Assembly: GCA_964512695.1 (NCBI GenBank)
Contig: CAZEJU010000001.1
Span: forward strand, 7,803-71,802
Source: an uncultured Gammaproteobacteria bacterium
GTDB taxonomy: Bacteria > Patescibacteriota > Microgenomatia > Levybacterales > UBA12049
Direction: 5' to 3'
DNA: 64,000 nucleotides
This document shows, one piece after another, positions 37,153-61,168 of this stretch (its first letter is position 1; each line of letters opens with the position of its first letter). The position numbers and the translations under genes are program-made. The notes beneath the pieces are model-generated. The model saw only the letters and a list, made by a program, of their open reading frames with translations, was not told where the DNA came from and made no database searches.

Positions 37153-37163
37153 TAACTGCTGTA

Positions 37164-38289: not shown

Positions 38290-38346
38290 AAAAAATTGAT
38301 TAGATTTTACTTCACTTACCCTCGGTTCGTAAACGTAAATGCTCTC

Positions 38347-38492
38347 TTGACGTCCAAATAGATATAACTCTATAATACAAAGTGTTCTATATGAATATCA
38401 TGAATAACAATGGAGCAGTAAAGAAGAACCTCTCGTAAGAGGGGTCTTTCTGTTGTCTGCACAATAGTACCCCTTACAGAAGGGGTTTTTTT
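38347..38492 (+). promoter_or_regulatory. Promoter plus Asn-codon leader-peptide attenuator
   Basis: TTGACG(38347)-18-TATAAT(38371). Leader ORF 38391..38438 = MNIMNNNGAVKKNLS (5 Asn in 15 aa). CCUCU/AGAGG hairpin over the stop codon. GAGGGG (38439) can pair with CCCCUU (38470), versus terminator CCCCUU-acag-AAGGGG + U7 (38470..38492). Confidence 0.65.
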
Positions 38493-38615
38493 ATGGATTT
38501 TTTGCTGAACCAATAGTTCTACTTAGAAATCCAAATCCTCCAAAAAGCGCTCTTCGAGCCGCAGTTCAAATGAACTAAAGCGGAAAGGAAGCTTAGGAGG
38601 ACAAAGCTTTACATT

Positions 38616-39899: not shown

Positions 39900-40966
39900 C
39901 TGAGAAAAGGGTAGTACAAATATTTTTCGATTTAGTAAAAATTGACAGCCCTTCTGGACATGAAGAGAACGTTTTAGAGTATATAGAAGCATATTGCAAA
40001 AAACTCTCACTAAATACACAGAGGGATTCTTATGGAAACCTCATCGTTAAAAAAGAAGGAGTAGGTGAACCACTACTTCTCTGTTCACATGCCGATACAG
40101 TAGAACCAGGGAAAAATATTCAACCACGAATAGAGAACGGAATTATAAAAAGCGATGGTACGACGATACTTGGTGCTGATAATAAATCGTCTATTGCAGC
40201 GATTCTCGAGGCTGTGAAACAATTAGTTGAAGAAAAAAAACACCATAGGCCTCTAGAGCTTGTGTTTACAAAATCTGAAGAAGTTGCTAGCTGGGGAGCA
40301 GTATATCTGGACTACAAACAACTTCAAGCAAAAGAAGGATATACGATAGATAACGCAAATCCTGTAGGAACAATTGTCTACGCGTCTCCTTTTTACTATC
40401 GTTTCGATATTACAGTATTCGGTAAAGATGCCCATGCTTCAAGACCGCATGAAGGAATTCATGCTTTAAAAATCGCTGCAAGCGCCATTCATAAAATAAA
40501 ACTTGGAAAAATTGATACAAATACACTTGCCAATATCGGCATGATCCAATCAGGCCATGTACGCAACACAATTCCAGGTTCAGTAGTGCTTATGGGAGAA
40601 GTACGAAGCTATTCCGATGAGAAAGCTCAAAGGTACTTAAACAAAATTATTGATACATTTAGAAAAACTGCAGAAAAAACGGGAGGATCTATAACGTACG
40701 AAACGCTGAAAGAAAATGCTGGGTATATATATAAAACAAATGATCCCTTTGTAAAAAAAACGATGCAGATTATGAAAAAGATTGGAGTAGAAACGAACTT
40801 AATTAAAACTCTGGGCTGTGCCGATGCAAATGTGATCCAAGAGCATGGAATTAAAATGCTCGACCTGGGCGACGGCTCACGCAGAGCGCATACACTAAAG
40901 GAGTCAATACCGGTAGCACAGTTACAAAGAGTCGTTGAGCTAGTATTAGCTCTTGCTGGAGCATAA
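39896..40966 (+). CDS. M20-family metallopeptidase (second copy, peptidase T-like)
   Basis: SPSGHE, SHADTVEPG, LGADNKSSIA, KDAHASRPHEGIHA. ATGA start/stop overlap with the upstream ATP-grasp gene. Paralogue of 30591..31676. Confidence 0.75.
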   Translation: MTEKRVVQIFFDLVKIDSPSGHEENVLEYIEAYCKKLSLNTQRDSYGNLIVKKEGVGEPLLLCSHADTVEPGKNIQPRIENGIIKSDGTTILGADNKSSIAAILEAVKQLVEEKKHHRPLELVFTKSEEVASWGAVYLDYKQLQAKEGYTIDNANPVGTIVYASPFYYRFDITVFGKDAHASRPHEGIHALKIAASAIHKIKLGKIDTNTLANIGMIQSGHVRNTIPGSVVLMGEVRSYSDEKAQRYLNKIIDTFRKTAEKTGGSITYETLKENAGYIYKTNDPFVKKTMQIMKKIGVETNLIKTLGCADANVIQEHGIKMLDLGDGSRRAHTLKESIPVAQLQRVVELVLALAGA

Positions 40967-41085
40967 AACCATACACTCTTCACCCTCCCTTTTCGAATTT
41001 ACGTGAACACTTCCCGAGGTTTGAATAGAAACCAACCTCCCAGGTTGGCAACTAGTAATTTGAGGACTTGCTTAAGGGAGCGTTT

Positions 41086-41204
41086 ATGCGATATACTTTC
41101 TTCAACATGAGTAAATCAGTTTTCGGAACTACCACTACAACAACCCTTTCCTAAGGGAGGTTGGCGTGGTATTATTTAACAACCTCCTTAATAGGAGGTT
41201 TTTT
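41086..41204 (+). promoter_or_regulatory. Thr-codon leader-peptide attenuator
   Basis: AGGGAG SD, then leader ORF 41086..41154 = MRYTFFNMSKSVFGTTTTTTLS (6 consecutive Thr codons). CCCUU/AAGGG 1:2 hairpin. AAGGGAGGUUG (41153) pairs with CAACCUCCUU (41180), versus terminator CCUCCU-uaau-AGGAGG + U6 (41183..41204). The terminator is nearly identical to that of the Met leader. Confidence 0.8.
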
Positions 41205-41322
41205 ATTGGGGAGAACACGTATCCGTCAGCTGAGGGATACCACGATAGAATCCCATGGATTATTGCATGGAATCCTATCGCCCCGGTGTACGTCAGGACT
41301 GAAAGCTGACCACAAATAACAT

Positions 41323-43107
41323 ATGACAAACGAACAAGAACTAAAAATAGGAGGACAAAAATCAGCGACGAAAGTTGATTTCGCTCATGCTGAGCATCCT
41401 TTAACCCATGCACGTCTTTATGAAGCAGTAGAAGAACGACGTGGTACCGTAGGTCCTGTAGGAGATGTTCCCAGAGCATATATAAGGGACTCTGCAACTG
41501 CGGCAATTATAGTAAGCACACCTTCAAAAGAGGTGGTTGCTGCTGTTCGATCACCTCTATGGATTCCTAGTGGTGTACGAAATGGAAGAGTAGAATTTGG
41601 TGGAAGACCAGATAAAGATCATATCGAATTTTCTTACTTACGTGAAACTGATTGGGAGTATGTAAAAGAATCTGCGAGGAAAAGATTAGACGCACTTAAA
41701 AAAGCCACAAAACTTAACGAATTTGTTGCTGAGCATGGAGGCTATCTCGGTATAGGAACAGAGCCGGAAGCATTTCTCCTTCATGAAGATGGCAGTGTCG
41801 TACAGATAAACGCTGGAGAGTCATTTTTAGGCCAGAGAGAAGACGCTCTGCCACCGATAGCGACACCCAGAGAGTATGCCCGCGCACGAGCGGAACTTAT
41901 TCAAAATCGAAGACAGCAATTACAGGCTGGTCAAATTGCCTTCGACGGCTCAGTTCGACCTACGGGGAAGATGAGCGAAACAAGAATAACCCAAGAAGGT
42001 GATGAAGCAATATATAATGTAGCTATCACGCAAGCGCTCCATACACGATACACCCATTGTGCAGATCCATTAACACGACAAATCATGGATCAGCTTGCTA
42101 AAACAGAAAACTATAGAGATTTTGACGAAATCTATAATCATGCTTCAACGATAACATACTGGGGTCCTCCCTCTGCATCGCATGCAGCTATAGGAATGCA
42201 TCAAAGACGCGAAAATGGGACAACCTTTGTACCAGAATGGGAAGCAGTAGCTCATGCAGATGTCATAAATAGCGATTTCGCAACTGCTGATGAACTACTG
42301 ATGATGTCAACGCCAGTCATATTCGGAGAACAACCTCAAGTTTTACATAAAGGTACATGGAGAAAACCACGCGACTATCGTCATTTTATGCGACATGTCG
42401 TTGACACTACCTATCCAGCACCTTTTGTCGGCTCGCCAGAAGCATTACGAGCAAATGTTACCGACAGTATACTCTCCGGCAGATCGCACACACTTGATAG
42501 ATCTGCATATACTGCAGATGTACATGGTTTATTAGTCCCTAACTATCATGGAAGAGTACGGATTAGACAAAAGGTTGATGTTACTCATAAAGGAGAAATT
42601 AAACAATCATGCCGTATAGAAGAAACAGGATGTTCACAGTCCGCATCTTTACCTGATGAATTGGCAAGAAATGCACTTATGCAGCTTAGAGCTGTTGCTG
42701 TCGACGAAGCCCTCGCAGCAGGTATGCATCCCTCTGAATTCTATAAAGAGAAATATCCGCATATGACAACTTGGCAAAAGCAGCAAGATATCGTACTCCA
42801 TGCAAATCTCTATGGTTTCCGACATCCTTTACCATCTGCTGTGATAATGGAAAATATTAGGCTTGTACGAGATATCGGTAAGAGATATCCTGTACTCGGT
42901 CTTCAAGCCGTACTCGCAGAAACACGCTTGAGAAATTTATTTGATGATCCAGCACGCTCTTTAGAAGTTTATGAACAAAAACCTATTGGTCCATTTAGCG
43001 AAGTTCTCCAGAATGAATTACATAATGGTACTTCACCTGTAGAACTCGCTCAAAAAGTAGCCGCTTACCAGGATACAGTAGCGGAAAAGATATTAAGAGT
43101 TCCATAG
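41323..43107 (+). CDS. GCS2-fold carboxylate-amine ligase-like protein, paralogue D (594 aa)
   Basis: YLGIGTEPEAFLLHEDG, SASHAAIGMHQ, NYHGRVRIRQKV...SCRIEETGCSQSA. Lies between the Thr attenuator and thrS. Confidence 0.55.
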   Translation: MTNEQELKIGGQKSATKVDFAHAEHPLTHARLYEAVEERRGTVGPVGDVPRAYIRDSATAAIIVSTPSKEVVAAVRSPLWIPSGVRNGRVEFGGRPDKDHIEFSYLRETDWEYVKESARKRLDALKKATKLNEFVAEHGGYLGIGTEPEAFLLHEDGSVVQINAGESFLGQREDALPPIATPREYARARAELIQNRRQQLQAGQIAFDGSVRPTGKMSETRITQEGDEAIYNVAITQALHTRYTHCADPLTRQIMDQLAKTENYRDFDEIYNHASTITYWGPPSASHAAIGMHQRRENGTTFVPEWEAVAHADVINSDFATADELLMMSTPVIFGEQPQVLHKGTWRKPRDYRHFMRHVVDTTYPAPFVGSPEALRANVTDSILSGRSHTLDRSAYTADVHGLLVPNYHGRVRIRQKVDVTHKGEIKQSCRIEETGCSQSASLPDELARNALMQLRAVAVDEALAAGMHPSEFYKEKYPHMTTWQKQQDIVLHANLYGFRHPLPSAVIMENIRLVRDIGKRYPVLGLQAVLAETRLRNLFDDPARSLEVYEQKPIGPFSEVLQNELHNGTSPVELAQKVAAYQDTVAEKILRVP

Positions 43108-43197
43108 GTACAAAGATGCAAGGTTCTACCGTAGTTCTCTGTAACATAAGATCTTCGTAACTATGCAACTATTCGCAGGTATGTTATAGTACAGCTT

Positions 43198-44937
43198 ATG
43201 GATAATAACGAAAAATTACAAAACTTACGACACTCAACAGCGCATTTACTTGCGGCTGCAGTCATGGAATTATGGCCTGATACGAAAAGAACAATAGGTC
43301 CTGCGATAGAAACTGGATTTTACTATGACTTCGATTTCGTAAAACCAATCTCAGTGGAAGACCTTCCTAAAATCGAACAAAAAATGCGGGAAATTCTTAA
43401 GTCATGGACAGGATTTATCAAAGAAGAAGTCTCAATAGAAGAAGCAAAAAAGAAAGTAGCAGGAAATGAATATAAACTCGAACTTATAGAAGAATTCGCG
43501 AAAGATAATAAAACCCTTACATTCTATACATCAGGTAATTATGAAGATTTATGTAAAGGCGGTCATGTAGAAAATCCAAAAATGGAAATCGGAGCATTTA
43601 AACTCCTCTCTCTCGCAGGCGCGTACTGGCGGGGAGACGAGAAAAACAAGATGTTAACTCGCATCTATGGTACTGCTTTTCCGACGAAACAAGAATTAGA
43701 AGAGTACCTAACCATGCTTGAGGAAGCGAAAAAACGAGACCATAAAAAATTGGGGAAGGAACTAGATCTCTTTATTTTTTCTCCTCTTGTAGGAGGGGGA
43801 CTTGCACTCTGGACACCCCGGGGGACAATTATTCGTGAAGAATTAGATAATTTTATTTGGCATATAAGAAAAAAGTTCGGTTATCAGAAAGTAACAATTC
43901 CTCATATTACAAAAAAAGATCTCTATGAGACATCCGGACACTGGGAAAAATTTGCAAATGAACTATTTAAAATCCAAACCCGTGAAGAAGATTTATTTGC
44001 GATGAAGCCTATGAATTGTCCTCACCATACACAACTCTACGCTTATAAACCTCGAAGCTACCGAGAGTTGCCACTACGTTATTCAGAAACAACTATGTGC
44101 TATAGAGACGAGCAAAGCGGAGAACTAGCTGGTTTATCCCGAGTTCGTGCTTTTACACAAGACGATGCGCATGTTTTTCTCAGAAAATCGCAAATAGAAG
44201 AAGAATTCTTACGAACTTGGGATATCGTAGATGATTTCTATAAAACTTTTGGCTTTGAGCTGAGAGTAAGGCTCTCACTTCATGATCCTGAACATATGGA
44301 AAAGTATCTAGGCGATGCGGGAATTTGGAAGGATGCTGAATCAAAAATTCGGGCGGTAGCAGAAAAAAGAAAAGCTAATACTTTTGAAGGAATTGGTGAA
44401 GCTGCAATGTATGGACCTAAACTAGACTTTATGACAAAAGATGCTCTTGGACGTGAATGGCAAGTAGCTACCATTCAACTTGATTTAAATCAACCAAAAC
44501 GCTTTGGCTTAACATGTATTAATGAAGAAGGAAAACAAGAAGACATCGTCATGATGCATTGTGCGGTTATGGGATCAATCGAAAGATTTGCTTCGATTTT
44601 AATCGAACATTACGCGGGAGCATTTCCACTCTGGCTTGCGCCAGTTCAAATCGAACTTTTACCAATAGCTGATCGCCATACAGAATATGCCCAATCAGTG
44701 TATAATCAGCTATCTGCAGCCAATATTCGTGTAAATCTTAATACCGAAAAAGCAACACTCCAGGCAAAAATACGTGAGGCTACTTTACAAAAAGTACCAT
44801 TTATGGGTATAATAGGCGATAAGGAAATTGCTGCAGAAGCGATTTCAGTCCGAACAAGAGAAGGAAAAGATGTCGGCCAACAACAGGTTGGTACATTTAT
44901 AACGGAGTTACAGGAAAAAATTGATAAAAAAGAATAG
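43198..44937 (+). CDS. thrS: Threonyl-tRNA synthetase (no N-terminal TGS domain)
   Basis: HSTAHLLAAAV editing-domain motif, class II motifs (..FRDEQSGELAGLSRVRAFTQDDAH.., ..GSIERF..) and an anticodon-binding C-terminus. TATAGT sits 7 nt before the ATG and there is no SD. Confidence 0.9.
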   Translation: MDNNEKLQNLRHSTAHLLAAAVMELWPDTKRTIGPAIETGFYYDFDFVKPISVEDLPKIEQKMREILKSWTGFIKEEVSIEEAKKKVAGNEYKLELIEEFAKDNKTLTFYTSGNYEDLCKGGHVENPKMEIGAFKLLSLAGAYWRGDEKNKMLTRIYGTAFPTKQELEEYLTMLEEAKKRDHKKLGKELDLFIFSPLVGGGLALWTPRGTIIREELDNFIWHIRKKFGYQKVTIPHITKKDLYETSGHWEKFANELFKIQTREEDLFAMKPMNCPHHTQLYAYKPRSYRELPLRYSETTMCYRDEQSGELAGLSRVRAFTQDDAHVFLRKSQIEEEFLRTWDIVDDFYKTFGFELRVRLSLHDPEHMEKYLGDAGIWKDAESKIRAVAEKRKANTFEGIGEAAMYGPKLDFMTKDALGREWQVATIQLDLNQPKRFGLTCINEEGKQEDIVMMHCAVMGSIERFASILIEHYAGAFPLWLAPVQIELLPIADRHTEYAQSVYNQLSAANIRVNLNTEKATLQAKIREATLQKVPFMGIIGDKEIAAEAISVRTREGKDVGQQQVGTFITELQEKIDKKE

Positions 44938-47383: not shown

Positions 47384-49372
47384 ATGAATATTAAAATACT
47401 TGATTCTTGGTTACGGGAGTATGTAAAAACAGATGCGACACCGCAAAAAATCGCTGAGGTTATGTCCTTAACAAGTGTCTCAATAGAAAAAATTGAGAAA
47501 TGGGAAAATGATTATGCCTATGATATTGAAGTAACGACAAACAGACCAGATTTAATGTCTGTAACTGGCTTAGCCAGAGAAGCAGCAGCTGTATTACCAC
47601 ACTTCGGAATACCAGCAACTTTTGAACAACTACATCTGCAGCGTCATCCTGATAAAGCGGCAATCCAAGATAGAATCTCGTCTTCACTCCAGCATGACAA
47701 CAAGGTCAAGTTTGAAATTGAAAACAATCCGGAACTGGTCAATAGAGTGAGTGGCGTTGTGATGGAAGTACAAGTTAAAGATACCCCCAAAGATATTAAA
47801 AAGAGATTGGAAGCTTCAGGAATACGCAGTCTAAATAACCTTATCGATATTACAAATTATGTTATGAGAGTCATCGGACACCCTACGCATGTTTTCGATT
47901 ATGACCGGTTACAATCTCAAAAACTCCGCATTCGGGAATCGAAAAAAGGAGAAAAGATAATAACGCTAGATGGAAAAACATATGAACTACCAGGAGGGGA
48001 CATCATCGCAGTCGATGAAAAGGGAAGAATAGTAGATCTCCTCGGTATCATGGGGCTCGAAAATAGCGTGGTAACTGACGAAACGAAAAGAATTTTATTC
48101 TTCATCGATAATAATGACCCTGAAAGAATGAGAAAAACATCTATGACTTTAGGGATACGTTCTGAAGCAGTACAGCTAAATGAAAAAGCGATTGATCCTC
48201 ATTTAATAGAAGATGCTCTGTATTATGGAATATCCCTGTATGAACAATTCGCAGATGGGAAAATTATCTCAAATATTTTCGATCACTTTCCCAACCAATA
48301 TAAAAAAAAGGTTCTGATCGTTAGTGAAAATCTTATTAATACAGTAATTGGTATTGAAATACCTTTAAATCAAGCTGCTACAATAGTAACTTCTTTAGGA
48401 TTCGATGTAAAAATAGGTAAAGATATTCTTGATATCACCGTACCTTCATTCCGATATAACGATATCAATAATGAAGAAGATATCATCGAGGAAATAGCGC
48501 GTATTTATGGCTACCATAAAATACCATCTGCTTTGCCACCCCTTTCTCCCAGCAATCTAGCTCATTATACAAATGAATTCTACTGGGAACAGCGAATCAA
48601 AGACGCGTTTAAATATTGGGGTTTTTCTGAAGTATATACCTATTCGATGGTAGGAGAAAATCTTTTCGAGGGCGAGTTATCAGAGGCTGTTACTATTCAG
48701 AATCCGCTTACAGAAGATATGGTCTATATGCGGAAAACTCTCATTCCGAATCTTCTACAAGTTATTCACGAAAACAAAACTAGAGAAGAAATTAAAATAT
48801 TCGAAATAGCAAATATTTACAGAAAACAAATAAACAGTTTGCCTCACGAAAAACTACACTTGGCAGGAATCATGAAAAAACCTAATGTTTCTTTCTTCGA
48901 AGTAAAAGGATTATTCGAACAGCTAGCAGAAGATCTTGGAATTAATGGATTAAAATTTAAAGCAATTGATAACGGTAGTACAGGTGCAGAAATATATATA
49001 CATTCAGAAAGAATTGGAGATATTGAAATACTTGATGCGCAAGTCATTGATTTCGAAATAGACTTCGGATTACTTATAGAACATGCTACCGCGAAAAAAA
49101 CCTACGAACCACTCGCGAAGTATCCACCAATAATTGAAGATATGGCTTTTCTACTACCTGATACAGTTTCAATTGGAGAAATAATTGAAACCATAAAAGC
49201 TCAGAATCAACTTATTAAAACAGTAACATTATTGGATAAATACAAAGATACCAGAACCTTTAGAATAACCTACCAAAACCCAGAGAAAAATTTAACATCA
49301 GAAGATGTAACACCAGTACGAGAAAAAATCGAAAAAGTTTTAAAAGAGAAACTTCAAATTCAACTGAAATAA
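47384..49372 (+). CDS. pheT: Phenylalanyl-tRNA synthetase beta subunit (short form)
   Basis: B3/4 domain (..TNRPDLMSVTGLAREAAA..), B5 domain, and a C-terminal ferredoxin-fold anticodon-binding domain. At 662 aa it lacks the usual N-terminal OB-fold tRNA-binding domain. Confidence 0.85.
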   Translation: MNIKILDSWLREYVKTDATPQKIAEVMSLTSVSIEKIEKWENDYAYDIEVTTNRPDLMSVTGLAREAAAVLPHFGIPATFEQLHLQRHPDKAAIQDRISSSLQHDNKVKFEIENNPELVNRVSGVVMEVQVKDTPKDIKKRLEASGIRSLNNLIDITNYVMRVIGHPTHVFDYDRLQSQKLRIRESKKGEKIITLDGKTYELPGGDIIAVDEKGRIVDLLGIMGLENSVVTDETKRILFFIDNNDPERMRKTSMTLGIRSEAVQLNEKAIDPHLIEDALYYGISLYEQFADGKIISNIFDHFPNQYKKKVLIVSENLINTVIGIEIPLNQAATIVTSLGFDVKIGKDILDITVPSFRYNDINNEEDIIEEIARIYGYHKIPSALPPLSPSNLAHYTNEFYWEQRIKDAFKYWGFSEVYTYSMVGENLFEGELSEAVTIQNPLTEDMVYMRKTLIPNLLQVIHENKTREEIKIFEIANIYRKQINSLPHEKLHLAGIMKKPNVSFFEVKGLFEQLAEDLGINGLKFKAIDNGSTGAEIYIHSERIGDIEILDAQVIDFEIDFGLLIEHATAKKTYEPLAKYPPIIEDMAFLLPDTVSIGEIIETIKAQNQLIKTVTLLDKYKDTRTFRITYQNPEKNLTSEDVTPVREKIEKVLKEKLQIQLK

Positions 49373-49450: not shown

Positions 49451-51802
49451 TCATGTAGGAGAAGGGGCATCACTAGGAGGGATAGTCGGTGTAGGTGTTT
49501 GTTCTTCTTTCTTTTCCTCCTCCTTCTTCTCTTCCTTTTTCACTTCCAGAATATCACCTGGAGGATGATATTTCTTATCATCTTTATGGGACTGTTCTAT
49601 CCATGCGTTGATACCTTCTTGCCAACGGTTTTTTCCATCATTTGAGGTAAAATCATCTTCACGGAAAACGAAGTAATCCTGACCATCTTTGTTCTGAAAA
49701 ACACGAGATTTCGTGGTAGGTTCTGTTCCTTTTACGAAATATTCAGTACGTGCCTGTAAACCATCTGTAGCCAATCCTCCAGCTAATGTGTCTACTTGTA
49801 CTGCTATGACATTATCTGGTTTTTTAAATTCCTCATTTGGTTTATCTTTTAAAGCCAATTTCATTAATTTGTTCCAGATAGAAGAAGCGCCTGTCGTTCC
49901 TGAAGCTATAGTGGGATTCATAGCACTATTATCGTTATTTCCTACCCATACACCTACTACGAAAGATGGGGTGTAACCCACAGTCCAGTTATCGCGTTTT
50001 TCGTCAGTAGTACCAGTTTTAACTGCAACAGTTTTTCCAGGAATGACGAGCAGCGAATTAGCACCGAACTCCTGTACACGGGCGTTATTATCAAGCAATA
50101 TATGAGAAATGATATAGCTAATCTCTTCTGATAATACTCGGGAACCTTCACGATTTTTATGTTCAAAAAGAATCTTCCCTTTAACATCTTTTACGTTTAT
50201 GAACGATATCAAATCTTTTCTAACTCCACTATTTGCGAAAACACCATATGCTTTTACTTCATCAAGTAATGATGTTTCTCTTCCTCCCAGAACTAACGAA
50301 TAGCCAACATTCTTCATAGTCTCCGTAGTAGGTTCCCAATTTTCTATACCCATTTCATACCCTTTTTGCATTGCGTCTTTTAGACCTACCATAGCAAGCA
50401 TCTTAACGGCAGGGATATTAAGAGAATTTCCTAAAGCGAAACGCATTTGAACAGGACCTTGGAATTTACCGCTATAGTTATTCGGCAGGTATGAATTCTC
50501 ATTTTCATTTGCTCGAAATTCTGTCTTTACATCCATAAACATGGTAGCTGCGGTATATCCTTTTTCTAAACCTTTAGCATAAATAATGGGCTTTAGTGAA
50601 GAGCCAGGTTGTCGTTTACCGATAGCGGCATTAAAATTCGGCTCGAAAACGCAATTCTTTCCCGGAGTACAACCTTCCGGAAGAGGATCGCTAAAATAGT
50701 CTTTACTTCCTACCATAGCAAGAATCTCTCCTGTTTTCGGATTTGTAATCACAGCTGAACCATTACCCACCTTATACTTCTCTAAATTATCAATCTCATC
50801 CTTTAAAATCTCTTGTGCTTCAGTTTGTAGCTTATAATCAAGAGTCGTAGTTACTTGTAAACCACCACGTTCCACCATCTGTTCACCGAACTGCCGCGCA
50901 AGTTGTTCTTTCACATACAAAACGAAGTGGGGGGCTTTAATCGTAGTATCCCGCTGAGAAAAAGTCATTTTCTCAATTTTTTTAATTGTCTCATCTGACT
51001 GTTTCTGTGTGATATATTTATTAGCTACCATTTGCTTTAAGACTGCTTTTGAACGGTCTATATAAAATTTATTACCAGTAAGCGGAGAATAAATGCTCGG
51101 ATTTTGAGGTAAACCTGCCATAAAAACAGACTCTGCTAAGGTTAAATCTTTCGCTGATTTATTAAAATACATTTGCGCTGCTGCCTCAACACCGACCGAG
51201 GTACCACCATAACCGATGTTATTTAGATACATCTCGAGAATCTGGTCTTTACTGAATTTGCTATCTACCTGAATAGCCAAAATTAACTCTTTAATCTTAC
51301 GAGGTAAACTTCTTTCGCTAGAAAGAAGAACATTCTTAACTAACTGTTGCGTAATACTCGAAGCACCGATTGCACGTCTTTTAAAAACGAGATTATATGC
51401 TATTCTCAAAGGACCCATAGGATCAAATCCTTTATTTTTATAGAAGTTTTCATCTTCTATAGCTACAGTAGCATTGCGGAGATTTTTCGCGATGTTATCT
51501 ATCGTGACATATGTCCTGTTTTGTTCAGCGTATACGGAATAGAGTAACTCGCCATTTCTGTCATAAATTCTCGTAGCATCTGAATATTTCGATTCAGCTA
51601 TCTTTCCTGGCTGCGGTAATTGGAAACTATAGTAAACGAAAAGACCCGCCACAAATATAATTCCAGCGATCACTGCAAAGAGAAGATACTTCATAAGCTT
51701 ATTAACAGTGATAACATCGAGAAGTTTTATTTTCCTTTTTGGAAAGCGAGATCTAAAGCGGTTAATCGCCCGGAGATTCCTTCTTCGTGACCGATAATCC
51801 AT
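49451..51802 (-). CDS. Class A penicillin-binding protein (glycosyltransferase + transpeptidase)
   Basis: GT51 motifs (AIEDENFYKNKGFD, GASSITQQLVKN, RKIKELILA), transpeptidase SxxK (GSSLKP) and KTGTT. Pro/Glu/Lys-rich C-terminal tail. Confidence 0.85.
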   Translation of the reverse strand: MDYRSRRRNLRAINRFRSRFPKRKIKLLDVITVNKLMKYLLFAVIAGIIFVAGLFVYYSFQLPQPGKIAESKYSDATRIYDRNGELLYSVYAEQNRTYVTIDNIAKNLRNATVAIEDENFYKNKGFDPMGPLRIAYNLVFKRRAIGASSITQQLVKNVLLSSERSLPRKIKELILAIQVDSKFSKDQILEMYLNNIGYGGTSVGVEAAAQMYFNKSAKDLTLAESVFMAGLPQNPSIYSPLTGNKFYIDRSKAVLKQMVANKYITQKQSDETIKKIEKMTFSQRDTTIKAPHFVLYVKEQLARQFGEQMVERGGLQVTTTLDYKLQTEAQEILKDEIDNLEKYKVGNGSAVITNPKTGEILAMVGSKDYFSDPLPEGCTPGKNCVFEPNFNAAIGKRQPGSSLKPIIYAKGLEKGYTAATMFMDVKTEFRANENENSYLPNNYSGKFQGPVQMRFALGNSLNIPAVKMLAMVGLKDAMQKGYEMGIENWEPTTETMKNVGYSLVLGGRETSLLDEVKAYGVFANSGVRKDLISFINVKDVKGKILFEHKNREGSRVLSEEISYIISHILLDNNARVQEFGANSLLVIPGKTVAVKTGTTDEKRDNWTVGYTPSFVVGVWVGNNDNSAMNPTIASGTTGASSIWNKLMKLALKDKPNEEFKKPDNVIAVQVDTLAGGLATDGLQARTEYFVKGTEPTTKSRVFQNKDGQDYFVFREDDFTSNDGKNRWQEGINAWIEQSHKDDKKYHPPGDILEVKKEEKKEEEKKEEQTPTPTIPPSDAPSPT

Positions 51803-51869
51803 ATATCACCTACAGTATAACAAAAATAGTACCCGCGAGGCAAAATCTACGGAGTGATATACTTCAGGT

Positions 51870-52526
51870 ATGGAAGAAAAATATTTTAAAGCATTCAAAG
51901 AAAAAAGAGATAAACAATTAGAAAACCTGCAACCTGAAGATGTTATTCCTTTTGACTTCACACCAATTCCTACAAGCTATTCACTGATTCTTCGACCTGA
52001 TCAAGGAACGTATATGAAACTTTCCGCATTACAAGACGAACTGAAAATTATAGATAATGATCAATATTATTATCCTAAGGATAGACTCCACCTAACACTT
52101 ATTGGTGGATTTTCAAGTGCTTTAAACGAAGAATTGATTGTTACAGCGATTAGAGATTCGTTATCTAAATATAATCCTATACGTTTTACGTTAGGAGTTA
52201 TCGCAAGTAACCAGTATTGTTCGTCAGTTTCAGCATTGCCAATTAGTTTTTCACTACATGATTTCCGAGAAGAAATCCGAGCAAAAGTTGGAGAAAACGG
52301 AGATGATTATTACCAGCATGTTTTTTACTATGAATATGTAGGATGGATAAACTATTTGCGTTATCTAAAGCAGCCTAAAGAAGCATTACTTAATGCATTA
52401 AGAGAAAAAAAAGAATATTCGGTTGGTGAGATGACTCCATCATCAATTAGCTTATTTAAAACTTCTAGCAGAATATTACATCCTAAAGAAACAACCATAA
52501 TTCATGAATTTGATGTCTATGCATAA
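51870..52526 (+). CDS. Hypothetical protein (possible 2H-phosphoesterase/LigT-like)
   Basis: One H-x-T-x motif (RLHLTLIG). A second is not evident. Confidence 0.25.
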   Translation: MEEKYFKAFKEKRDKQLENLQPEDVIPFDFTPIPTSYSLILRPDQGTYMKLSALQDELKIIDNDQYYYPKDRLHLTLIGGFSSALNEELIVTAIRDSLSKYNPIRFTLGVIASNQYCSSVSALPISFSLHDFREEIRAKVGENGDDYYQHVFYYEYVGWINYLRYLKQPKEALLNALREKKEYSVGEMTPSSISLFKTSSRILHPKETTIIHEFDVYA

Positions 52527-52710
52527 GTTCCGATATATATTAGGCCTAATGATAAAAGTTGTACGGAACGACCGTGGATATAATGTACTTACTATTACTA
52601 AACCTGAGAGTAGGGAATCACATGAAACTAAAAAGAAAAATTACCTCGTAACAAACTTGCGTTGCACAAAGATAACTTCATTAATAATATATTCAATACT
52701 TATTTTGCGA

Positions 52711-54291
52711 TTAGGTTGATTCAACAGCATCAAGTTGAGGAGTTATGATAACCGTGTGCATGGTATCGCTACCAACTTGATATGAATCAAGTTCTTTTAC
52801 TTCGAAATGCACTCCAGATCCATGCGTAAATCTATTTAAAAGTCCCCGGGAAATCAGGCGATATGAAGTATCTCCACGCATTTGAGAAAAAATCGGCAAT
52901 AATTTTCCTTTTTTAGCATACTCTTCAACATATTTTTCTATAAATGCTTGAATTAACTTTATGCCACCCATACCTGTGCTGCTATCAAATCTATCGGTAG
53001 CAAAATCCATTATATATATACAAGATTGATCTGCATATTCAGGGTTATCAGCTATTGATATATCACGCATTTTCCCTTCATACGCTAATAAATACCCTTT
53101 AAGCCTTCCCTCTGATGTTCTATATGCAAAACTCATATTAGGTCTACCTTGTCTTGCGTTATTAATATCTTTCGCAATAAGTGTATTTTCCATCCCGTGC
53201 AAACCTAATAATAATCCATCATTTTCTTTGTATATACGGCTTTCTAGAAAACCTACTTGCAAAGAATCTTCAAATGTAAGAGGCGTTATTTGTTGATCTA
53301 AAGCTGGAGGAGTTTTTTTATCTGTTTGGCTAACATGAACCGTTTTATTTCTTATTTGATGTTTTCTCTTACGTTTTTCTTGAAGACCCAATTCGTATAC
53401 TTCATCATCGATATTATCTGAATAGCTCATCGGTGCTTGGGGAGCGAATGTGTTAGGACGCTTTGGAAGTTGGGTAAGTGCATCAGAATATCCCATACCA
53501 ATCACGACTCTTCCCTTTTCTACTCCAAGTTGATCACCGTATTGATCAACATATTCTTTAAAAAAGTCACTATAGAGTAACTCTAATACTTCATCTTTTC
53601 CCTTAAAATTTGGTGTAATTTCAATATTATCGCAGGCAATTATCCCTTCTTGTTTATCAAGAACGGTTTCTGGAAGGACTTCGTCAAGTGGTGTCTTTTG
53701 CTGTAGTGCTCTCGTGACATTTGGTATTGGTATATTCATATTTTTATCCTTAGTTACGACACTTTGTGCAACTGTCCTTTTCTTTCCATTTTTTTGTACA
53801 ATTTGAATAAGAAGTTGACTACAATTTGGATTAAATGTATACACCGTGTTTTTCCCATCCCCGAACGGCATACAACACGCTGTATCATTGCCTGCTACTG
53901 TTGCTTCGGGATCAGACTTTACTGCTATTTCAACAATATATTTAGTAGTTTGTGCCTCGGATTTCGGTATTCCAAATTCTGGATTATATATAAGACTCTC
54001 AAGTCTGGCTGCAATGTCAGCAGGTAAATCAATCCCAGATTCAAGATAGTCATTAAGCGAAATGTTGGGTATACGGAAAATTGCGGCGATTTCTTTATAG
54101 AGTCTCTGAGGATTACGCGCTTCTCCTGCAATTCGACGAGAACGTGATCCTAATGCTTTTTGAGCAACTTCATTTAAAGCGATAGATTCCTTATAATCTT
54201 CAACTTCATATTCAATTCGCATTGGAGGAAATACTTGTAAAGTATCTATTGTTCCTTCCACTAATGCATCGCGTAAATCTTCCGATGTCAT
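52711..54291 (-). CDS. Hypothetical protein, downstream ORF of a frameshift-linked pair (C-terminal GNAT-like region)
   Basis: 526 aa from the ATG at 54291, but the frame stays open upstream to 54480 with no start codon. The C-terminal ..CIYIMDFATDR..GMGGIKLIQAFIEKYVEEY.. looks acetyltransferase-like. Confidence 0.5.
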   Translation of the reverse strand: MTSEDLRDALVEGTIDTLQVFPPMRIEYEVEDYKESIALNEVAQKALGSRSRRIAGEARNPQRLYKEIAAIFRIPNISLNDYLESGIDLPADIAARLESLIYNPEFGIPKSEAQTTKYIVEIAVKSDPEATVAGNDTACCMPFGDGKNTVYTFNPNCSQLLIQIVQKNGKKRTVAQSVVTKDKNMNIPIPNVTRALQQKTPLDEVLPETVLDKQEGIIACDNIEITPNFKGKDEVLELLYSDFFKEYVDQYGDQLGVEKGRVVIGMGYSDALTQLPKRPNTFAPQAPMSYSDNIDDEVYELGLQEKRKRKHQIRNKTVHVSQTDKKTPPALDQQITPLTFEDSLQVGFLESRIYKENDGLLLGLHGMENTLIAKDINNARQGRPNMSFAYRTSEGRLKGYLLAYEGKMRDISIADNPEYADQSCIYIMDFATDRFDSSTGMGGIKLIQAFIEKYVEEYAKKGKLLPIFSQMRGDTSYRLISRGLLNRFTHGSGVHFEVKELDSYQVGSDTMHTVIITPQLDAVEST

Positions 54292-54419
54292 ATCTAAATT
54301 AGGAAGGCGTGTATAATTAGAAGGTTTTTTTCTATCTTGAATCCAGTCAGGAGTATGGGAAGCTTGAGCATTTAGAACAAGATCGGGATTAAAGGCAAAA
54401 TTTAGTACTGCAGTTTGAT

Positions 54420-55760
54420 CTACTTTACTATTGGGATGAAAGCCGACAGTTGTAACCCATTGATATAATTTTGCTTTTTTTCATCTTTTTTTCCTTCTCT
54501 TCCTAACGTGTTTAATTTTATTAACAAATATTTCTTTTGCAGAAGTTCAGCAAGTTTCGCGAAACGTTTTAGATTATTCCAACTCTCAAAAACTTTTTTC
54601 GGATTTTGAAACTCTGATGCCAGTGCAGAAACTTCTGGTGTATCTTTAGCTTCCTCTAGTAATTGTATGCAAGTCTCCCAATTCGTTAGGATTGTTTGAG
54701 CAATAGGAATAAAAAAGTCATAAGAGGTATATTCAGCTACCTCATCATCATCGCTCAACTTATACCTTCCACGGTCAAGTGAAACTTGATGGAGAATATT
54801 TGCCCAGAATTCATCAGGTGTCAGACCACTGACTTCATATAGCTTTAAGACATCTGGAAATGCATGGATTGCATCATGGGTACTTATATCTTGTTCAAAT
54901 GTTGCTTCATGAGTTTTTGGATCAAGGTGATAGCGTCGTATATATTTAAACATTCTATCATAACCAAATATTTCTCCTGCTGCTCTGAAATTAGTAATGT
55001 CTAACTCCTTCCATTCATTGATCCATGATTCTAAGTTTTTTGATCCACTAGTTATTGCATCAAATGCTCTTTTAAAATCTTCTGAAGATCTTAAGTTAAG
55101 AATGTCAATTCCCGCTTTCTTTACAAACTCTGCATCTATAGGAGATATACCGACTTTATGTGCATAATCAATTTCACTCCTTGTTAAACCAGAAGGTTCA
55201 ATAATTTTATTTAACAAAGCGTAAGCATGATCAAACGGTAAGACATATTCACAAATTGCATAAAGATCTGAGAAGGAATTAACGTTATATGATGCAAAAA
55301 GAGATTGAAGCTGCGGTGGCATATCCTTTTTATATTCTTCTAATAAACCTTTTGAATCGATATCTTTGAACACCTGCATGATCTGACCATTTAGATCGGA
55401 CTCTCTTCCGTAGTTTGTTATTAAGAAATTGGAAAGTACGTTTAAAGGGGGAGGTGTCTGGGAGTGATCATAAATATATTTATAAAAATCAAACCTTTTA
55501 ACTTGTCTAGACCCAGTTCTATTATCATCAGTTAATAATTCATAGGTTTTAGCTGCCTCATCTGGTGTAAGAACTAGGCCATTATATTGAGTTTGTAATT
55601 CTTCTACTAACTTTGTATTATCTTCTCCTTCGACTGTGGAAAATTTTCTAAAAAGATCTTCGAATTTTGCTTTTCTTTCTATTTCAGCAGGATTAACTTC
55701 TACAACACTATTAGTATCTGATATCTGATATCTGATATCTGATATCGACAATATCTTCAT
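54420..55760 (-). CDS. Hypothetical protein, upstream ORF of the frameshift-linked pair (446 aa)
   Basis: Long ORF with no recognised family. It ends 17 codons after the A7 tract. Confidence 0.5.
   Translation of the reverse strand: MKILSISDIRYQISDTNSVVEVNPAEIERKAKFEDLFRKFSTVEGEDNTKLVEELQTQYNGLVLTPDEAAKTYELLTDDNRTGSRQVKRFDFYKYIYDHSQTPPPLNVLSNFLITNYGRESDLNGQIMQVFKDIDSKGLLEEYKKDMPPQLQSLFASYNVNSFSDLYAICEYVLPFDHAYALLNKIIEPSGLTRSEIDYAHKVGISPIDAEFVKKAGIDILNLRSSEDFKRAFDAITSGSKNLESWINEWKELDITNFRAAGEIFGYDRMFKYIRRYHLDPKTHEATFEQDISTHDAIHAFPDVLKLYEVSGLTPDEFWANILHQVSLDRGRYKLSDDDEVAEYTSYDFFIPIAQTILTNWETCIQLLEEAKDTPEVSALASEFQNPKKVFESWNNLKRFAKLAELLQKKYLLIKLNTLGREGKKDEKKQNYINGLQLSAFIPIVK
54474..54480 (-). 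promoter_or_regulatory. Candidate -1 frameshift heptamer A_AAA_AAG
   Basis: Zero-frame codons GAA AAA AAG of the 446-aa ORF. The -1 frame has TGA immediately upstream (54483..54481) and is open from 54480 into the 526-aa ORF. Confidence 0.45.
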
Positions 55761-56331: not shown

Positions 56332-57711
56332 ATGAAAGACAATGTACTATCAACTGAGCAAGAACAAGAAAACGAGTTAGAGATGCATGAAGCTTTCCAC
56401 AAGCAAGTACATGCAGTTCTAGAATCTGAAGACAGATTCAGAAAAGCTGAAAGAACAACGAGAATTGGCCTTGAAGCCGAATATAGTGTCATAAATGCAA
56501 CGTGTGATCAAGTAGACCAAACAGTCAGAGATCAAATTATTGAAGACAATAGAGACTTCGCTACCCAAGAGTTAGGGGCAGCACAAATTGAATTACGAAC
56601 TGACCCTATTATCCTTTCTGATGGAGGAATCTGGCAGGTATTTGACCAGATGGCATCTAGAGATGACGCTATAAGGAATGCGGCACATAGACGGGGTGCG
56701 CGTATACTGAGAAGCGGCACAAACCCCTTAGTCGATCTTCATGACATACTAAGAACTGATAAACCAAAATACCGGCAAGTACCTGATTTCCATAATAGAA
56801 AGAGAAAGTTTGGCACAGACACAACAATTGGCAATGGAAAAAGAGTTGATGTAGGAGACGCTGCTGTAGTTGCACTCTTAAACTCTTTGCAGACGAATAT
56901 AGAAGCTGTAGATTTCGCAGATGCCACAGATAAATTAAACAGATCGTTAATGATTGGACCGTATGTTACTGCAGTCAGTTCCGGGGCACGGTATATCGCT
57001 CATCAAGACGCAGGCTTAGCTGATTTACGAATTCTTGCTTGGGAAACGAGTCATGACACGAGAACTGACTCAGAGAGAACACTAGGTGAAAAAACCAGAG
57101 TCGGACTGCCAGCACGATACTATACTGATGTAAAGGATTACTTTACACAAGTGGGATCATATCCATTTATTCTCCATAATCCAGAGGCAGCACTTCAAAT
57201 AGGAATCGGTCTTCATTGGAGAGATACACGGTTAAAAGTAATAGGGGACAGCCTTGTGGTAGAATTCCGTCCCATATCTGCACAGCCAACATCTGCAGAA
57301 AATGTAGCTTCTGCTTTATTTTATACAGGAAGACTACATTGGTCTCAAGCCACAAACGAACCATTGCTGCCGTTTGATAAAGTAGAACATAATAGAAAAC
57401 AAGCACTACACGAAGGCCCTAGAGGGACTATGTACTATACAGAAGACAATAATGTACAGCGATATAAAGCTCCAGAAATCATAAAACTAGAATTAGCGAG
57501 AGCAAAACATGGATTAGAGATGATAGGTTGTCACCCAAAAGATATTGAACCATTCTTTTCAGTTCTAGAAAAAAATCTCGATGAAGGTACACCTGCTGAA
57601 CGGATGCACAATGTCGTATCACGTCTCACAGAAAATGTTTCTGAGAAAGATAAAAAAGAGGCTACACATGATGCTCTTATCACAGCCATTCAAGTCTTAC
57701 AATTCGTATGA
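56332..57711 (+). CDS. GCS2-family carboxylate-amine ligase-like protein, paralogue E (459 aa, the most canonical copy)
   Basis: RIGLEAEYSVIN, GLHWRDTRLKVIGDSLVVEFRPISAQPTSAENVASALFYTG matches the GCS2/YbdK signature closely. Confidence 0.7.
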   Translation: MKDNVLSTEQEQENELEMHEAFHKQVHAVLESEDRFRKAERTTRIGLEAEYSVINATCDQVDQTVRDQIIEDNRDFATQELGAAQIELRTDPIILSDGGIWQVFDQMASRDDAIRNAAHRRGARILRSGTNPLVDLHDILRTDKPKYRQVPDFHNRKRKFGTDTTIGNGKRVDVGDAAVVALLNSLQTNIEAVDFADATDKLNRSLMIGPYVTAVSSGARYIAHQDAGLADLRILAWETSHDTRTDSERTLGEKTRVGLPARYYTDVKDYFTQVGSYPFILHNPEAALQIGIGLHWRDTRLKVIGDSLVVEFRPISAQPTSAENVASALFYTGRLHWSQATNEPLLPFDKVEHNRKQALHEGPRGTMYYTEDNNVQRYKAPEIIKLELARAKHGLEMIGCHPKDIEPFFSVLEKNLDEGTPAERMHNVVSRLTENVSEKDKKEATHDALITAIQVLQFV

Positions 57712-57723
57712 TATACTTTCGAT

Positions 57724-58920
57724 ATGGATAAAATAGAAGAAGTACTCACCAGAGGAGTTGCAAACATTATTCCAGGAAAACAAGTCCTAAAGGACGTTTT
57801 AACTTCAGGTAGAAAAATAAATATCTATCTCGGTATCGATCCTACAGCACCGAGAATCCATCTCGGTCATGCAGTTTCTATTCGAAAACTACAAAACTTC
57901 GTCGACTTAGGTCATAAAGTAACATTTCTTATTGGTAATTTTACTTCGCTTATCGGCGATACCTCTGATAAGGATTCAGAAAGGCCCATTCTCACAGAAA
58001 AAGAAATAGAACAAAACTTCCAGACATATAAAGAACAAGCAGAGAAGTTACTTGATTTTTCAAAAGTACACATAGTACGTAACAGAGATTGGTTAAATAC
58101 ATTAACATTTGCCGAAATTGTACGATTAACACAAAACTTTTCAGTTAATGACTTTATCAGTAGAGAGTTAATTAGAAAACGTTTAGATGAAGGCAAACGT
58201 GTACGACTCGATGAGGTACTCTATCCAATTATGCAGGGATATGACAGTTATTTTATGGATACAGATCTACAGATAGGGGGTACTGATCAAACGTTTAATA
58301 TGCAAGCTGGGAGAACATTACAAAAAGTGATGAGAAATAAAGAATCTTTTGTCTTATCTACTGTTTTCCTAACAGGAACAGATGGTCGAAAAATGAGTAA
58401 ATCGTGGGGGAATGCAATCTGGATAAGCGATTCAGCTGAAGATATGTTTGCGAAAGTAATGGCTGTCAGAGATGACCTTCTCCTAGAATATTTCTTATTA
58501 GCTACAAATGTCCCCTTACACCAGGTCGAGGCTATAAAAGAACGGTTACAATCCGGTGCAAATCCTATGGAAATTAAAAAAGAACTCGCTTTTATAATTG
58601 TCGAGGAATTACATGATAAAACTGCCGCGGTAGCAGCTCAAGAAAAATTCGAAAAAACTGTACAGAACAGAGAATTACCCGAAGAGATACCTGTGGTCAT
58701 TATTCCGGAAACACTACAATCAGAAATTGCTATTGCAGACGTTTTAAGCACACTGGGATTAGTAGAAAGTAAATCAGAAGCCAAACGTTTAGTAGATCAA
58801 GGTGGTGTGGAAATAGATGGACAAAAAGTAACGAATACAAATGAAATAATTAGTGTAAAAGATGATATGATAATAAAAGTAGGAAAGAGAAGAATTGTTA
58901 AACTGACAACGACGAAATAA
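57724..58920 (+). CDS. tyrS: Tyrosyl-tRNA synthetase
   Basis: GIDPTAPRIHLGH (HIGH), KMSKS, and a C-terminal S4-like domain (..SKSEAKRLVDQGGVEIDGQKV..). Starts 12 nt after paralogue E. Confidence 0.85.
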   Translation: MDKIEEVLTRGVANIIPGKQVLKDVLTSGRKINIYLGIDPTAPRIHLGHAVSIRKLQNFVDLGHKVTFLIGNFTSLIGDTSDKDSERPILTEKEIEQNFQTYKEQAEKLLDFSKVHIVRNRDWLNTLTFAEIVRLTQNFSVNDFISRELIRKRLDEGKRVRLDEVLYPIMQGYDSYFMDTDLQIGGTDQTFNMQAGRTLQKVMRNKESFVLSTVFLTGTDGRKMSKSWGNAIWISDSAEDMFAKVMAVRDDLLLEYFLLATNVPLHQVEAIKERLQSGANPMEIKKELAFIIVEELHDKTAAVAAQEKFEKTVQNRELPEEIPVVIIPETLQSEIAIADVLSTLGLVESKSEAKRLVDQGGVEIDGQKVTNTNEIISVKDDMIIKVGKRRIVKLTTTK

Positions 58921-59080
58921 TATGAACTTCGCACGAAAACATCAAAAAATATTCAGAGTGATCATGCTTATTGCTATTATAGCGATGATTCTGTCATCAT
59001 TCCTCATGTACCTACCATACTTCTAACCCTTAGTTTGAAAACTAAAACAAGGCTAAAATAATCTGCTACAATTGCAACAT

Positions 59081-61168
59081 ATGACTTTACAAACTCCAGT
59101 TGCGACATTAGGACGAGCCTTTAAAATGTATGCAGGGAGATTAGCTAAGCTGGGAATATTTACAATCGAAGACCTATTTTTTCACTTTCCTTTTCGTTAT
59201 GATAACTTTTCTTTGATTTCTAAAATTGCCAGCATTCAGCCCGGAGAGGTCGTAACAGTTCAAGGACAAGTTTTAACAATTGATAATATCTATACTCGAA
59301 ACAACAAAAAAATCCAGAAAGGTATGGTTGCTGATGAAACTGGTTCACTAGAAGTCGTTTGGTATAACCAACCTTTTCTTACGAAATATATTCATGTAAA
59401 CGACAAGATTTCTCTTTCTGGCACGGCAGAAATGTTTCAAAATAAAGTAGTTCTTACATCCCCAGAGTACGAGCTTATCCACGCAGAAGGCAAAACCTTA
59501 CATACAGGGAGATTAGTACCAATATATCCAGAAACAGCTGGCGTCACATCTAAATGGCTACGACGGCAAATTTATAAACTACTCGATGAAACGCAAGCCA
59601 GCATTCGAGATTACTTACCAGCTAGTCTGTTAATAAAATACAATTACCCGCCTCTCCGTGAAGCATTGTGGCAGATTCATTTTCCTCAAACGCTAGAACA
59701 AGCACAACGGGCAAGAGAAAGACTTTCTTTTGATGAATTATTGCTGATACAACTGAAGTCTCAAGAGCGACGAAAAGAATGGGAAAAAGACTTACGTGGG
59801 TATAAGTTATCAGTTGTAGGTTATCAGAAGGAACTCGACAATTTTATACAATCCTTACCTTTTACCTTAACACAATCACAATCAAGGGCTGTTGATGAAA
59901 TATTTCGAGATATGACAAAAGAAAAACCGATGAATACACTTTTACAAGGTGACGTCGGTAGTGGAAAAACAATAGTTGGTGCTTTTGCTATATATCTCGC
60001 TTATTTAAATGGTTTTCAATCAGTTTTCATGGCTCCTACTGAAATCCTCGCACAACAACACTATGAAACGATTAAAAAGTTTTTAGAGCCTTTTGGTGTA
60101 AAAATTGCGTTGGCAACAGGAAGTAAAAGAGAAGGATTTAAGATTCAAGATTCAGGATTCAAGAATAAAAAGACAAAAGAACATACATCTTTAATCTTAA
60201 ATCATGAATCTTTTCATGTATTAGTCGGTACTCATGCTGTACTTTCGGACAAAATCAAACTCGATAACCTTGGACTTGTGATCATCGACGAGCAACAACG
60301 TTTCGGCGTAGAACAACGGGGAATAATCAGGGAAAAAGGAACAAATCCTCACTTTCTTACCATGACTGCCACACCAATACCGCGAACTGTTGCACTTACA
60401 ATGTACGGAGATCTTGAGGTAGTATTTCTAGGTGATATGCCTAAAGGCAGAAAGCCAATTAAGACATGGCTCGTACCACCAGAGAAAAGAGAGGGGGCAT
60501 ATGGATGGATTCGAAAGCAGATTACTGACACGCATTCGCAAATATTTATTATCTGTCCTTTTATAGAAGAATCAGAAAATATGCAAACAGTAAAAGCTGC
60601 AAAAGTAGAATTTGAAAGACTTCAAAAAGAAGTGTTTCGGGATTTACGGTTAGGATTACTCCATGGAAAATTAAAAGCAAAAGAAAAAGACCAGGTATTA
60701 ACTGATTTTCGTGAAAATAAGTTTGATATCCTTGTAGCTACACCAGTCGTAGAAGTAGGAATAGATATTCCCAATGCGACAGTTATTATGATAGAAGCAG
60801 CTGACCGGTTCGGCCTAGCGCAATTACACCAGTTACGAGGAAGAGTAGGAAGAGGAGAGAAACAATCATACTGTTTACTTTTTACAGAGTCTCCATCACA
60901 GCAAACGTTTACTCGTCTAAAAGCAATGGAAACGAAACACCAGGGTGCAGAACTGGCTGAACTGGATCTTAAGCTACGAGGTCCAGGAGATATTTTCGGT
61001 ACAGCACAGTCAGGACTACCAACATTAAAAATAGCGACATTTTCAGATTTCCCACTCATAGAAAGAACAAGACAAGAGGCTCACAACTTATTTCCAATGG
61101 TAGAAAAATATCCTGCGTTGCAGGAAAAAGTGACAGAGATTACATCAACAATAGTCTCCCCAGACTAA
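59081..61168 (+). CDS. recG: ATP-dependent DNA helicase RecG
   Basis: Wedge/OB N-terminus and helicase motifs (LLQGDVGSGKT, DEQQRFGV, TATPIPRT, QLHQLRGRVGRG). Confidence 0.85.
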   Translation: MTLQTPVATLGRAFKMYAGRLAKLGIFTIEDLFFHFPFRYDNFSLISKIASIQPGEVVTVQGQVLTIDNIYTRNNKKIQKGMVADETGSLEVVWYNQPFLTKYIHVNDKISLSGTAEMFQNKVVLTSPEYELIHAEGKTLHTGRLVPIYPETAGVTSKWLRRQIYKLLDETQASIRDYLPASLLIKYNYPPLREALWQIHFPQTLEQAQRARERLSFDELLLIQLKSQERRKEWEKDLRGYKLSVVGYQKELDNFIQSLPFTLTQSQSRAVDEIFRDMTKEKPMNTLLQGDVGSGKTIVGAFAIYLAYLNGFQSVFMAPTEILAQQHYETIKKFLEPFGVKIALATGSKREGFKIQDSGFKNKKTKEHTSLILNHESFHVLVGTHAVLSDKIKLDNLGLVIIDEQQRFGVEQRGIIREKGTNPHFLTMTATPIPRTVALTMYGDLEVVFLGDMPKGRKPIKTWLVPPEKREGAYGWIRKQITDTHSQIFIICPFIEESENMQTVKAAKVEFERLQKEVFRDLRLGLLHGKLKAKEKDQVLTDFRENKFDILVATPVVEVGIDIPNATVIMIEAADRFGLAQLHQLRGRVGRGEKQSYCLLFTESPSQQTFTRLKAMETKHQGAELAELDLKLRGPGDIFGTAQSGLPTLKIATFSDFPLIERTRQEAHNLFPMVEKYPALQEKVTEITSTIVSPD
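60135..60213. repeat. Inverted pair of heptamer arrays inside the recG coding sequence
   Basis: GATTTAA GATTCAA GATTCAG GATTCAA (60135..62), and CATCTTT AATCTTA AATCATG AATCTTT (60186..60213). GATTTAAGATT is exactly complementary to AATCTTAAATC. Confidence 0.75.

Follow-up and report, generated by a model that had tools for sequence, protein, structure and literature searches.

Our analysis concerns a stretch of 64,000 nucleotides (the window) from contig CAZEJU010000001.1, positions 7,803 to 71,802 of the forward strand, in NCBI GenBank assembly GCA_964512695.1, which GTDB places in the Levybacterales of the Patescibacteriota, and within it two open reading frames (ORFs) that follow one another on the minus strand in different frames. 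ORF1 (55760..54420, 446 residues) holds the N-terminal part of the product in frame 0, and ORF2 (54291..52711, 526 residues from its first ATG) the C-terminal part. Around 54500..54470 the minus strand reads AGA GAA GGA AAA AAA GAT GAA AAA AAG CAA AAT; this contains the heptamer A_AAA_AAG at 54480..54474, which stands in the X_XXY_YYZ phase of ORF1 (GA[A] AAA AAG), and a homopolymer of seven A (A7) at 54481..54475, T7 on the plus strand. A second A7 run, in frame as GGA AAA AAA, lies at 54486..54492 on the same strand and is preceded by a purine-rich AAGGA (54496..54492), about 11 nucleotides (nt) 5' of the heptamer.

In the -1 frame a TGA at 54483..54481 closes the reading, beyond which 589 codons are open, from 54480 to 52711; the first ATG, GTG or TTG among them is codon 64, the ATG at 54291. 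The 63 codons upstream of it (54292..54480, minus strand) make up the longest start-less extension in the window, the next being 35 and 32 codons long. Frame 0 continues for 17 codons past the AAG to a TAG at 54422..54420, with the tail QNYINGLQLSAFIPIVK*, and overlaps the -1 frame over 54480..54423. A -1 slip on the heptamer would give a fusion of 1016 residues (..DEKK|AKLYQW..), in which ORF2 makes up residues 491-1016 and the lysine-rich trans-frame junction reads ..EKKAKLYQWVTTVGFHPNSKVD... Because the TGA closes the -1 frame up to the A7 run and homology resumes at GCA (54474..54472), the change of frame is confined to that run, and the heptamer is the only place where it can occur. An earlier note on this DNA, made from the letters alone, had described this arrangement, and we confirm its elements: the in-phase heptamer in the 446-residue frame, the TGA just 5' of it in the -1 frame, the roughly 190 start-less nucleotides that lead openly into the 526-residue frame, the stop 17 codons on when no slip takes place, and a fusion that had been put at about 1,015 residues.

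Homology across the junction indicates that ORF1 and ORF2 belong to one gene for a protein of about 1016 residues; the joining of the two frames proposed in the earlier note is borne out by single alignments that run through the junction. Relatives were sought with a word-indexed protein search, a scan of GTDB species representatives and an exhaustive HMMER search of a library of 1.84 billion representatives. The word-indexed search returned 11 relatives, and the fusion matches single long proteins with E = 1e-191 to 1e-208 in one alignment spanning the junction; the pairing of ORF1 with ORF2 is far beyond chance. The species representatives yielded 71 loci, mostly in metagenome-assembled genomes (MAGs) of Patescibacteria, the Candidate Phyla Radiation (CPR), all at most 43% identical, and the HMMER search 456 cluster representatives, 292 of them at E <= 1e-30. 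All relatives are at most 46% identical to the fusion and nearly all are 900-2500 residues long (range 750-5700). They align to fusion residues ~200-1010 as one stretch, across residue 428, and a single tblastn high-scoring segment pair (HSP) crosses that residue in 62 of the 71 loci, the other nine being cut at contig ends or broken elsewhere. Among the matches listed, with the window's own two halves left out, about 140 of 148 representatives span the junction in one frame. Even the shortest natural proteins of the family start at query residue ~260-290, where the conserved module begins, and no family member in the exhaustive search starts near residues 430-490.

The residues on either side of the break tell the same story at finer scale. 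At the junction the window reads ..LNTLGREGKKDEKK|AKLYQWVTTVGFHPNSKV.. against ..LKELKAEGKE-----KLYRYVETLAFHPDSKV.. in relatives, and the start-less stretch encodes the conserved ..AFHPxSKV..SHTP..DRKKPSNY..PNLD.., including the family-invariant residues H442, P459, P480, S481 and Y483. Residues 1-428 of ORF1 are thus part of the full-length protein; its last 17 codons (54473..54423) and the TAG are out-of-frame read-through without homology. At the DNA level 58 relatives were compared, and in none of them is the frame broken at this position. The two halves themselves are recorded as separate NCBI-derived proteins, P0133 (446 residues) and P0132 (526 residues); both are singletons of one NCBI contig (161,342 nt) in a collection of 15 billion proteins, and when ORF1 and ORF2 were looked up as exact sequences, no further contig came to light. 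Apart from these halves, the 1.84-billion-representative search held no relative more than 46% identical, and a single-protein scan of JGI metagenome contigs gave no close relative. The single continuous ORF in relatives that the earlier note had named as a refutation is therefore found at the level of the family, and not among close relatives, of which public data hold none. The TypA of the organism is 76-86% identical to that of Candidatus Levybacteria.

The family to which the fusion belongs is widespread in Patescibacteria and uncharacterised. From an N-terminus that is variable, its layout runs through a conserved helical domain and an alpha/beta domain with a GNDTACCMPFGDGKN motif to a C-terminal domain at fusion residues ~820-1010 (52732..53304, minus strand) that shows the alpha/beta fold of the GNAT (GCN5-related N-acetyltransferase), or acyl-CoA N-acyltransferase-like, proteins. 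At the sequence level the fusion, GNAT domain included, has no match in Pfam, NCBIfam or the PDB. In an AlphaFold2 model of the fusion (predicted local distance difference test score 75, predicted template modelling score 0.64), the junction falls within a short loop flanked by helices 410-423 and 427-440 of a confidently modelled helical domain, so the break would cut a domain and not a boundary between modules. This loop varies in length among relatives, most of which have one that is five residues shorter.

A comparison within this loop points to how the frame was lost. Locus L033, one of the relatives, reads GAT GAA GAT AAA GCT AAA TTA TAT (TDEDKAKLY), with a loop of the same length as in the fusion, and the window reads GAT GAA AAA AA- GCA AAA TTA TAT. 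Since the restoration of one A makes the two match codon for codon, the simplest history is that of an A8 run now recorded as A7: an intact gene would have carried GAA AAA AAA GCA (A8) where the window carries GAA AAA AAG CA (A7). We consider, with a probability of roughly four in five, that the break is a sporadic, non-programmed deletion of one base in a homopolymer within a length-variable surface loop. The deletion may be a genuine and recent mutation in the sequenced population, for which the odds fall just short of even, or, as we hold still more tentatively, a homopolymer-length error of the consensus. This genome alone has the arrangement, which lies inside a homopolymer prone to mutation and error, as expected of a sporadic frameshift. 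Apart from the break neither half is damaged, and the frame stays open for 589 codons beyond the shift, which fits a recent or artefactual event. Surveys have treated homology-validated singleton frameshifts in the same way, as sequencing errors or recent indels (PMC3711429). A homopolymer error and a recent deletion had been listed in the earlier note as alternatives to frameshifting; we judge them the better explanations. The in-phase A_AAA_AAG is then a by-product of the deletion and not an evolved signal.

Several observations weigh against this reading of the break as sporadic. The window otherwise looks accurate: 54 A/T runs of at least 7 nt lie inside its ORFs (43 of 7 nt, 10 of 8 nt and one of 9 nt) and only one of them is at a frame break, and the remaining window genes with Pfam matches are all full length. 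Two independent Logan short-read contigs, from the runs SRR11524805 and SRR8893623, show 100% identity with the window across 2739 and 1172 nt (57426-60164 and 51373-52544), regions that lie outside the site and include two A7 runs and one A8 run; this identity argues against a generally error-prone assembly. The gene has no second lesion, and selection on a gene that depends on frameshifting would likewise leave none; the family comparison is a distant one throughout. Finally, the heptamer is the best-known bacterial slippery sequence, it is in phase, and the spacing of the AAGGA resembles that in dnaX.

One rival proposal is that a programmed -1 ribosomal frameshift on A_AAA_AAG has evolved as a trait of this lineage, perhaps aided by pairing of the AAGGA with the anti-Shine-Dalgarno sequence. 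Such a shift would yield the 1016-residue enzyme at a set ratio to a 446-residue N-terminal product. In its favour are a canonical heptamer pinned in phase to the sole possible shift window, an AAGGA some 11 nt upstream, intact halves with conserved residues in the start-less stretch, an assembly that otherwise looks clean, and the fact that no heptamer in E. coli is more prone to shift than A_AAA_AAG (PMC5009743). Against it, the heptamer is no evidence of programming, because deleting one A from GAA AAA AAA GCA necessarily leaves A_AAA_AAG in phase. It is also common: the 54.9 kb of window coding sequence contain 16 in-phase copies of A_AAA_AAG and 17 of A_AAA_AAA, and the 15 other copies of the former have nothing to shift into. 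The codon before AAA_AAG ends in A in 44% of the 36 such pairs, compared with 39% for codons overall, and the heptamer is on that account neither avoided nor special.

Programmed sites of the dnaX / IS3 type carry a stimulatory stem-loop or pseudoknot 5-9 nt 3' of the heptamer. The earlier note had found no convincing downstream hairpin, and our folds of pseudoknot-free secondary structure agree: the 60-nt and 100-nt downstream segments reach -7.1 and -15.4 kcal/mol and are not significantly more stable than shuffled sequences (z = -0.40 and -0.96). The AAGGA could be a Shine-Dalgarno-like stimulator, and its relevance is doubtful: it encodes E-G within a purine-rich stretch, most of the 39 genes checked in the window have no Shine-Dalgarno motif, and the 3' end of the 16S rRNA lies outside the window. 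Neither position nor direction of the shift is conserved, the split being common to none of 58-62 relatives (0 of 58 at the DNA level) and the site falling within a variable loop. A useful second isoform is unlikely, because translation of the short form would stop partway through a folded domain. Beyond the motif itself we find no positive support for programming in a comparison limited to relatives of at most 46% identity, and we regard it as improbable; the canonical, programmed signal that the title of the earlier note may be read to mean is not supported, as the heptamer is common, has no downstream stimulator and stands in an arrangement absent from relatives.

A related proposal retains the one-base deletion and gives it consequences. 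It is unlikely, though not negligibly so, that this CPR bacterium has fixed the deletion in a chromosomal, non-mobile gene and now depends on -1 slippage, without structure downstream, to make its 1016-residue GNAT-domain protein. If so, the site would be a lineage-specific device for recoding or for setting dosage, or an ON/OFF switch at the A-tract, in an organism whose mRNAs largely lack Shine-Dalgarno motifs. On the sporadic reading favoured above, if the deletion is real, occasional spontaneous -1 slippage of tRNA-Lys on A_AAA_AAG would restore the ancestral ..DEKKAKLY.. at a low level, as would, more rarely, slippage of RNA polymerase, and most ribosomes would make the 446-residue fragment that ends inside the folded helical domain. 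Low-level slippage of this sort would amount to compensatory, 'leaky' expression; compensatory frameshifting has been described by Atkins et al. (2016; PMC5009743), and the slipperiness of A_AAA_AAG depends on a single tRNA-Lys (PMC5009743), for which we found no gene within the window. The slip put forward in the earlier note holds in one respect, in that it would give exactly the ancestral-looking protein, and is not supported as a programmed signal.

Three further explanations have very little to recommend them. In the first, RNA polymerase inserts one A too many as it passes the A7/T7 tract, and ordinary translation of the A8 mRNA gives the full protein. The homopolymer and the AT-rich genome suit this idea, and disrupted ORFs restored at A/T runs are known (PMC1088944); the tract has only 7 nt, fewer than the roughly 9 nt from which transcriptional slippage becomes significant. 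In many genomes selection against slippage-prone runs shows itself from a length of about 9 nt (Baranov et al., 2005; PMC1088944), and in the window's ORFs runs of 7 and 8 nt are common and runs of 9 nt are not. The 7-nt runs appear to be tolerated, which implies little slippage, and we give this explanation only a slim chance.

The second holds that there are two independently expressed genes and that ORF2, starting at the ATG at 54291, functions without the upstream part. Gene callers did record P0133 and P0132 separately, and many window genes appear leaderless, so that a Shine-Dalgarno motif would not be required. Against this, 63 conserved codons with family-invariant residues would go untranslated, no family member starts near the ORF2 ATG, and the split falls inside the helical domain. 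An internal promoter for ORF2 was also looked for, and no promoter-like site was found on the minus strand from 54480 to 54291. Two separate genes are accordingly very hard to credit.

In the third, the frame was broken by an 11-nt tandem duplication (AGGAAAAAAAG|ATGAAAAAAAG) and not by the loss of one base. The copies match at 10 of 11 positions, removal of 11 nt restores the frame (REGKKAKLYQW), and the loop is five residues shorter in most relatives. Only nine consecutive matches occur at period 11, so an extra substitution would be needed, and L033 shares both the loop length and D-E-x-K-A-K-L-Y on both sides of the break. Since its loop is as long as that of the fusion, the longer loop is older than the break, and on this comparison we rejected the duplication as having next to no likelihood. 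An alternative code in which TGA is sense was likewise rejected, as the housekeeping genes in the window read through intact with table 11, and such recoding would be irrelevant to the fusion because the TGA lies upstream of the slip site.

A number of observations concern the family at large. N-terminal regions are highly variable and repeat-rich, and that of P0008 has only a weak, unrelated Pfam match (PF25082). In two relatives the same gene is broken at other positions: L063:1561-1572 has a scaffold gap (a run of N), and L062:3420-3430 shows an internal deletion of about 70 residues with a change of frame; both lie away from a homopolymer. The family can be multi-copy: a Drouetiella sp. 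MAG contig (L041, DATNPZ010000013.1) carries three copies of the conserved module in about 8 kb, and P0135, a protein of 5715 residues, matches the query in two stretches. In JAAZJX010000069.1 (58,642 nt) one gene copy lies at each contig end in opposite orientation (L029 and L030), and these end-anchored loci share the match coordinates 314-2620; this looks like an inverted terminal duplication, a palindromic assembly artefact. The neighbourhood is not shared, as PBP1A, TyrS, GCS2-like and RecG neighbours were found at none of 73 relative loci, and these loci gave no syntenic orthologue. In the window itself, the divergent neighbour (56332-57711, plus strand, 459 residues) is only weakly similar to glutamate-cysteine ligase family 2 / carboxylate-amine ligase, and the downstream neighbour (51870-52526) has a sub-threshold match to 2'-5' RNA ligase-like proteins.

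Elsewhere in the window, most genes lack a Shine-Dalgarno motif upstream of the ATG (for example at 15220, 51870, 57724, 61249 and 23658), and in most a TATAAT-like box (gatatact, tataat, tatact) ends about 5-12 nt 5' of the ATG, a sign that the mRNAs of this Levybacteria-like genome may have very short leaders or none. The region 24000-44000 has a G+C content of 0.39-0.42, compared with 0.35-0.38 elsewhere. Large ORFs without a Pfam match lie at 25114-26868, 27022-28503, 28697-30556, 33436-35136 and 41323-43107, and two M20 peptidase paralogues are encoded in the same block, together with a DUF3182 protein and an ATP-grasp protein; the block may have been acquired or may be a biosynthetic cluster. 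The gene for tRNA-Leu(tag) at 18310-18393 overlaps the first 14 codons of the trigger-factor ORF (18352-19269), whose true start is for that reason probably further downstream; the trigger factor is short (305 residues) and has N- and C-domains with no match to the peptidyl-prolyl isomerase domain. PheT (47384-49372) is also short, at 662 residues: it matches the bacterial PheT model only from position 158 on and is without most of the N-terminal B1/tRNA-binding region, in a gene that is otherwise intact and directly follows pheS. On the minus strand, 5482-6477 encodes a 331-residue Kelch-repeat beta-propeller with strong eukaryote-type Kelch_1 matches (E = 1e-64), which is unusual for a CPR bacterium.

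Read as a sporadic deletion, the locus is an ordinary frameshifted gene at a homopolymer. For annotation, the 446-residue and 526-residue entries are best joined into a single entry of about 1016 residues that is marked as a frameshifted gene. If the A7 run is real and fixed, it would be a small, clean natural indel that leaves behind the most slippery bacterial heptamer, and it could be used to gauge leaky frameshifting by CPR ribosomes on A_AAA_AAG without stimulators.

The locus can be compared with several known systems. The programmed -1 sites of E. coli dnaX and of IS3/IS911 share with it the heptamer and its phase, their Shine-Dalgarno-like element has a possible counterpart in the purine-rich sequence about 10-11 nt upstream, and in IS3 orfAB and 'reversed' dnaX, as here, it is the long product that needs the shift. 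Unlike dnaX and IS3, the site described here has no downstream stem-loop and no conservation in relatives, its gene is neither dnaX nor part of a mobile element, its 0-frame product ends inside a domain, and its host genome is largely without Shine-Dalgarno-led genes. As for the product, its GNAT-superfamily domain closes a conserved module of about 750 residues that has no characterised relative. The 'savior indel' or poly(A) rescue of AT-rich reduced genomes (PMC5009743; PMC1088944) offers another parallel, with a homopolymer indel in a gene that is otherwise intact and low-level slippage that would restore the exact protein, although documented transcriptional rescue involves tracts of 9-10 nt or more and the tract here has 7. 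From category i of GeneTack, the singleton 'authentic frameshift' or sequencing-error genes at homopolymer runs (Antonov et al., 2013; PMC3711429), the locus differs in nothing substantive: its two parts match successive stretches of one family, a homopolymer holds the break, which is absent from relatives, and gene callers emit two ORFs. The only special point of the present case is that the leftover sequence is the most slippery bacterial heptamer, in phase.

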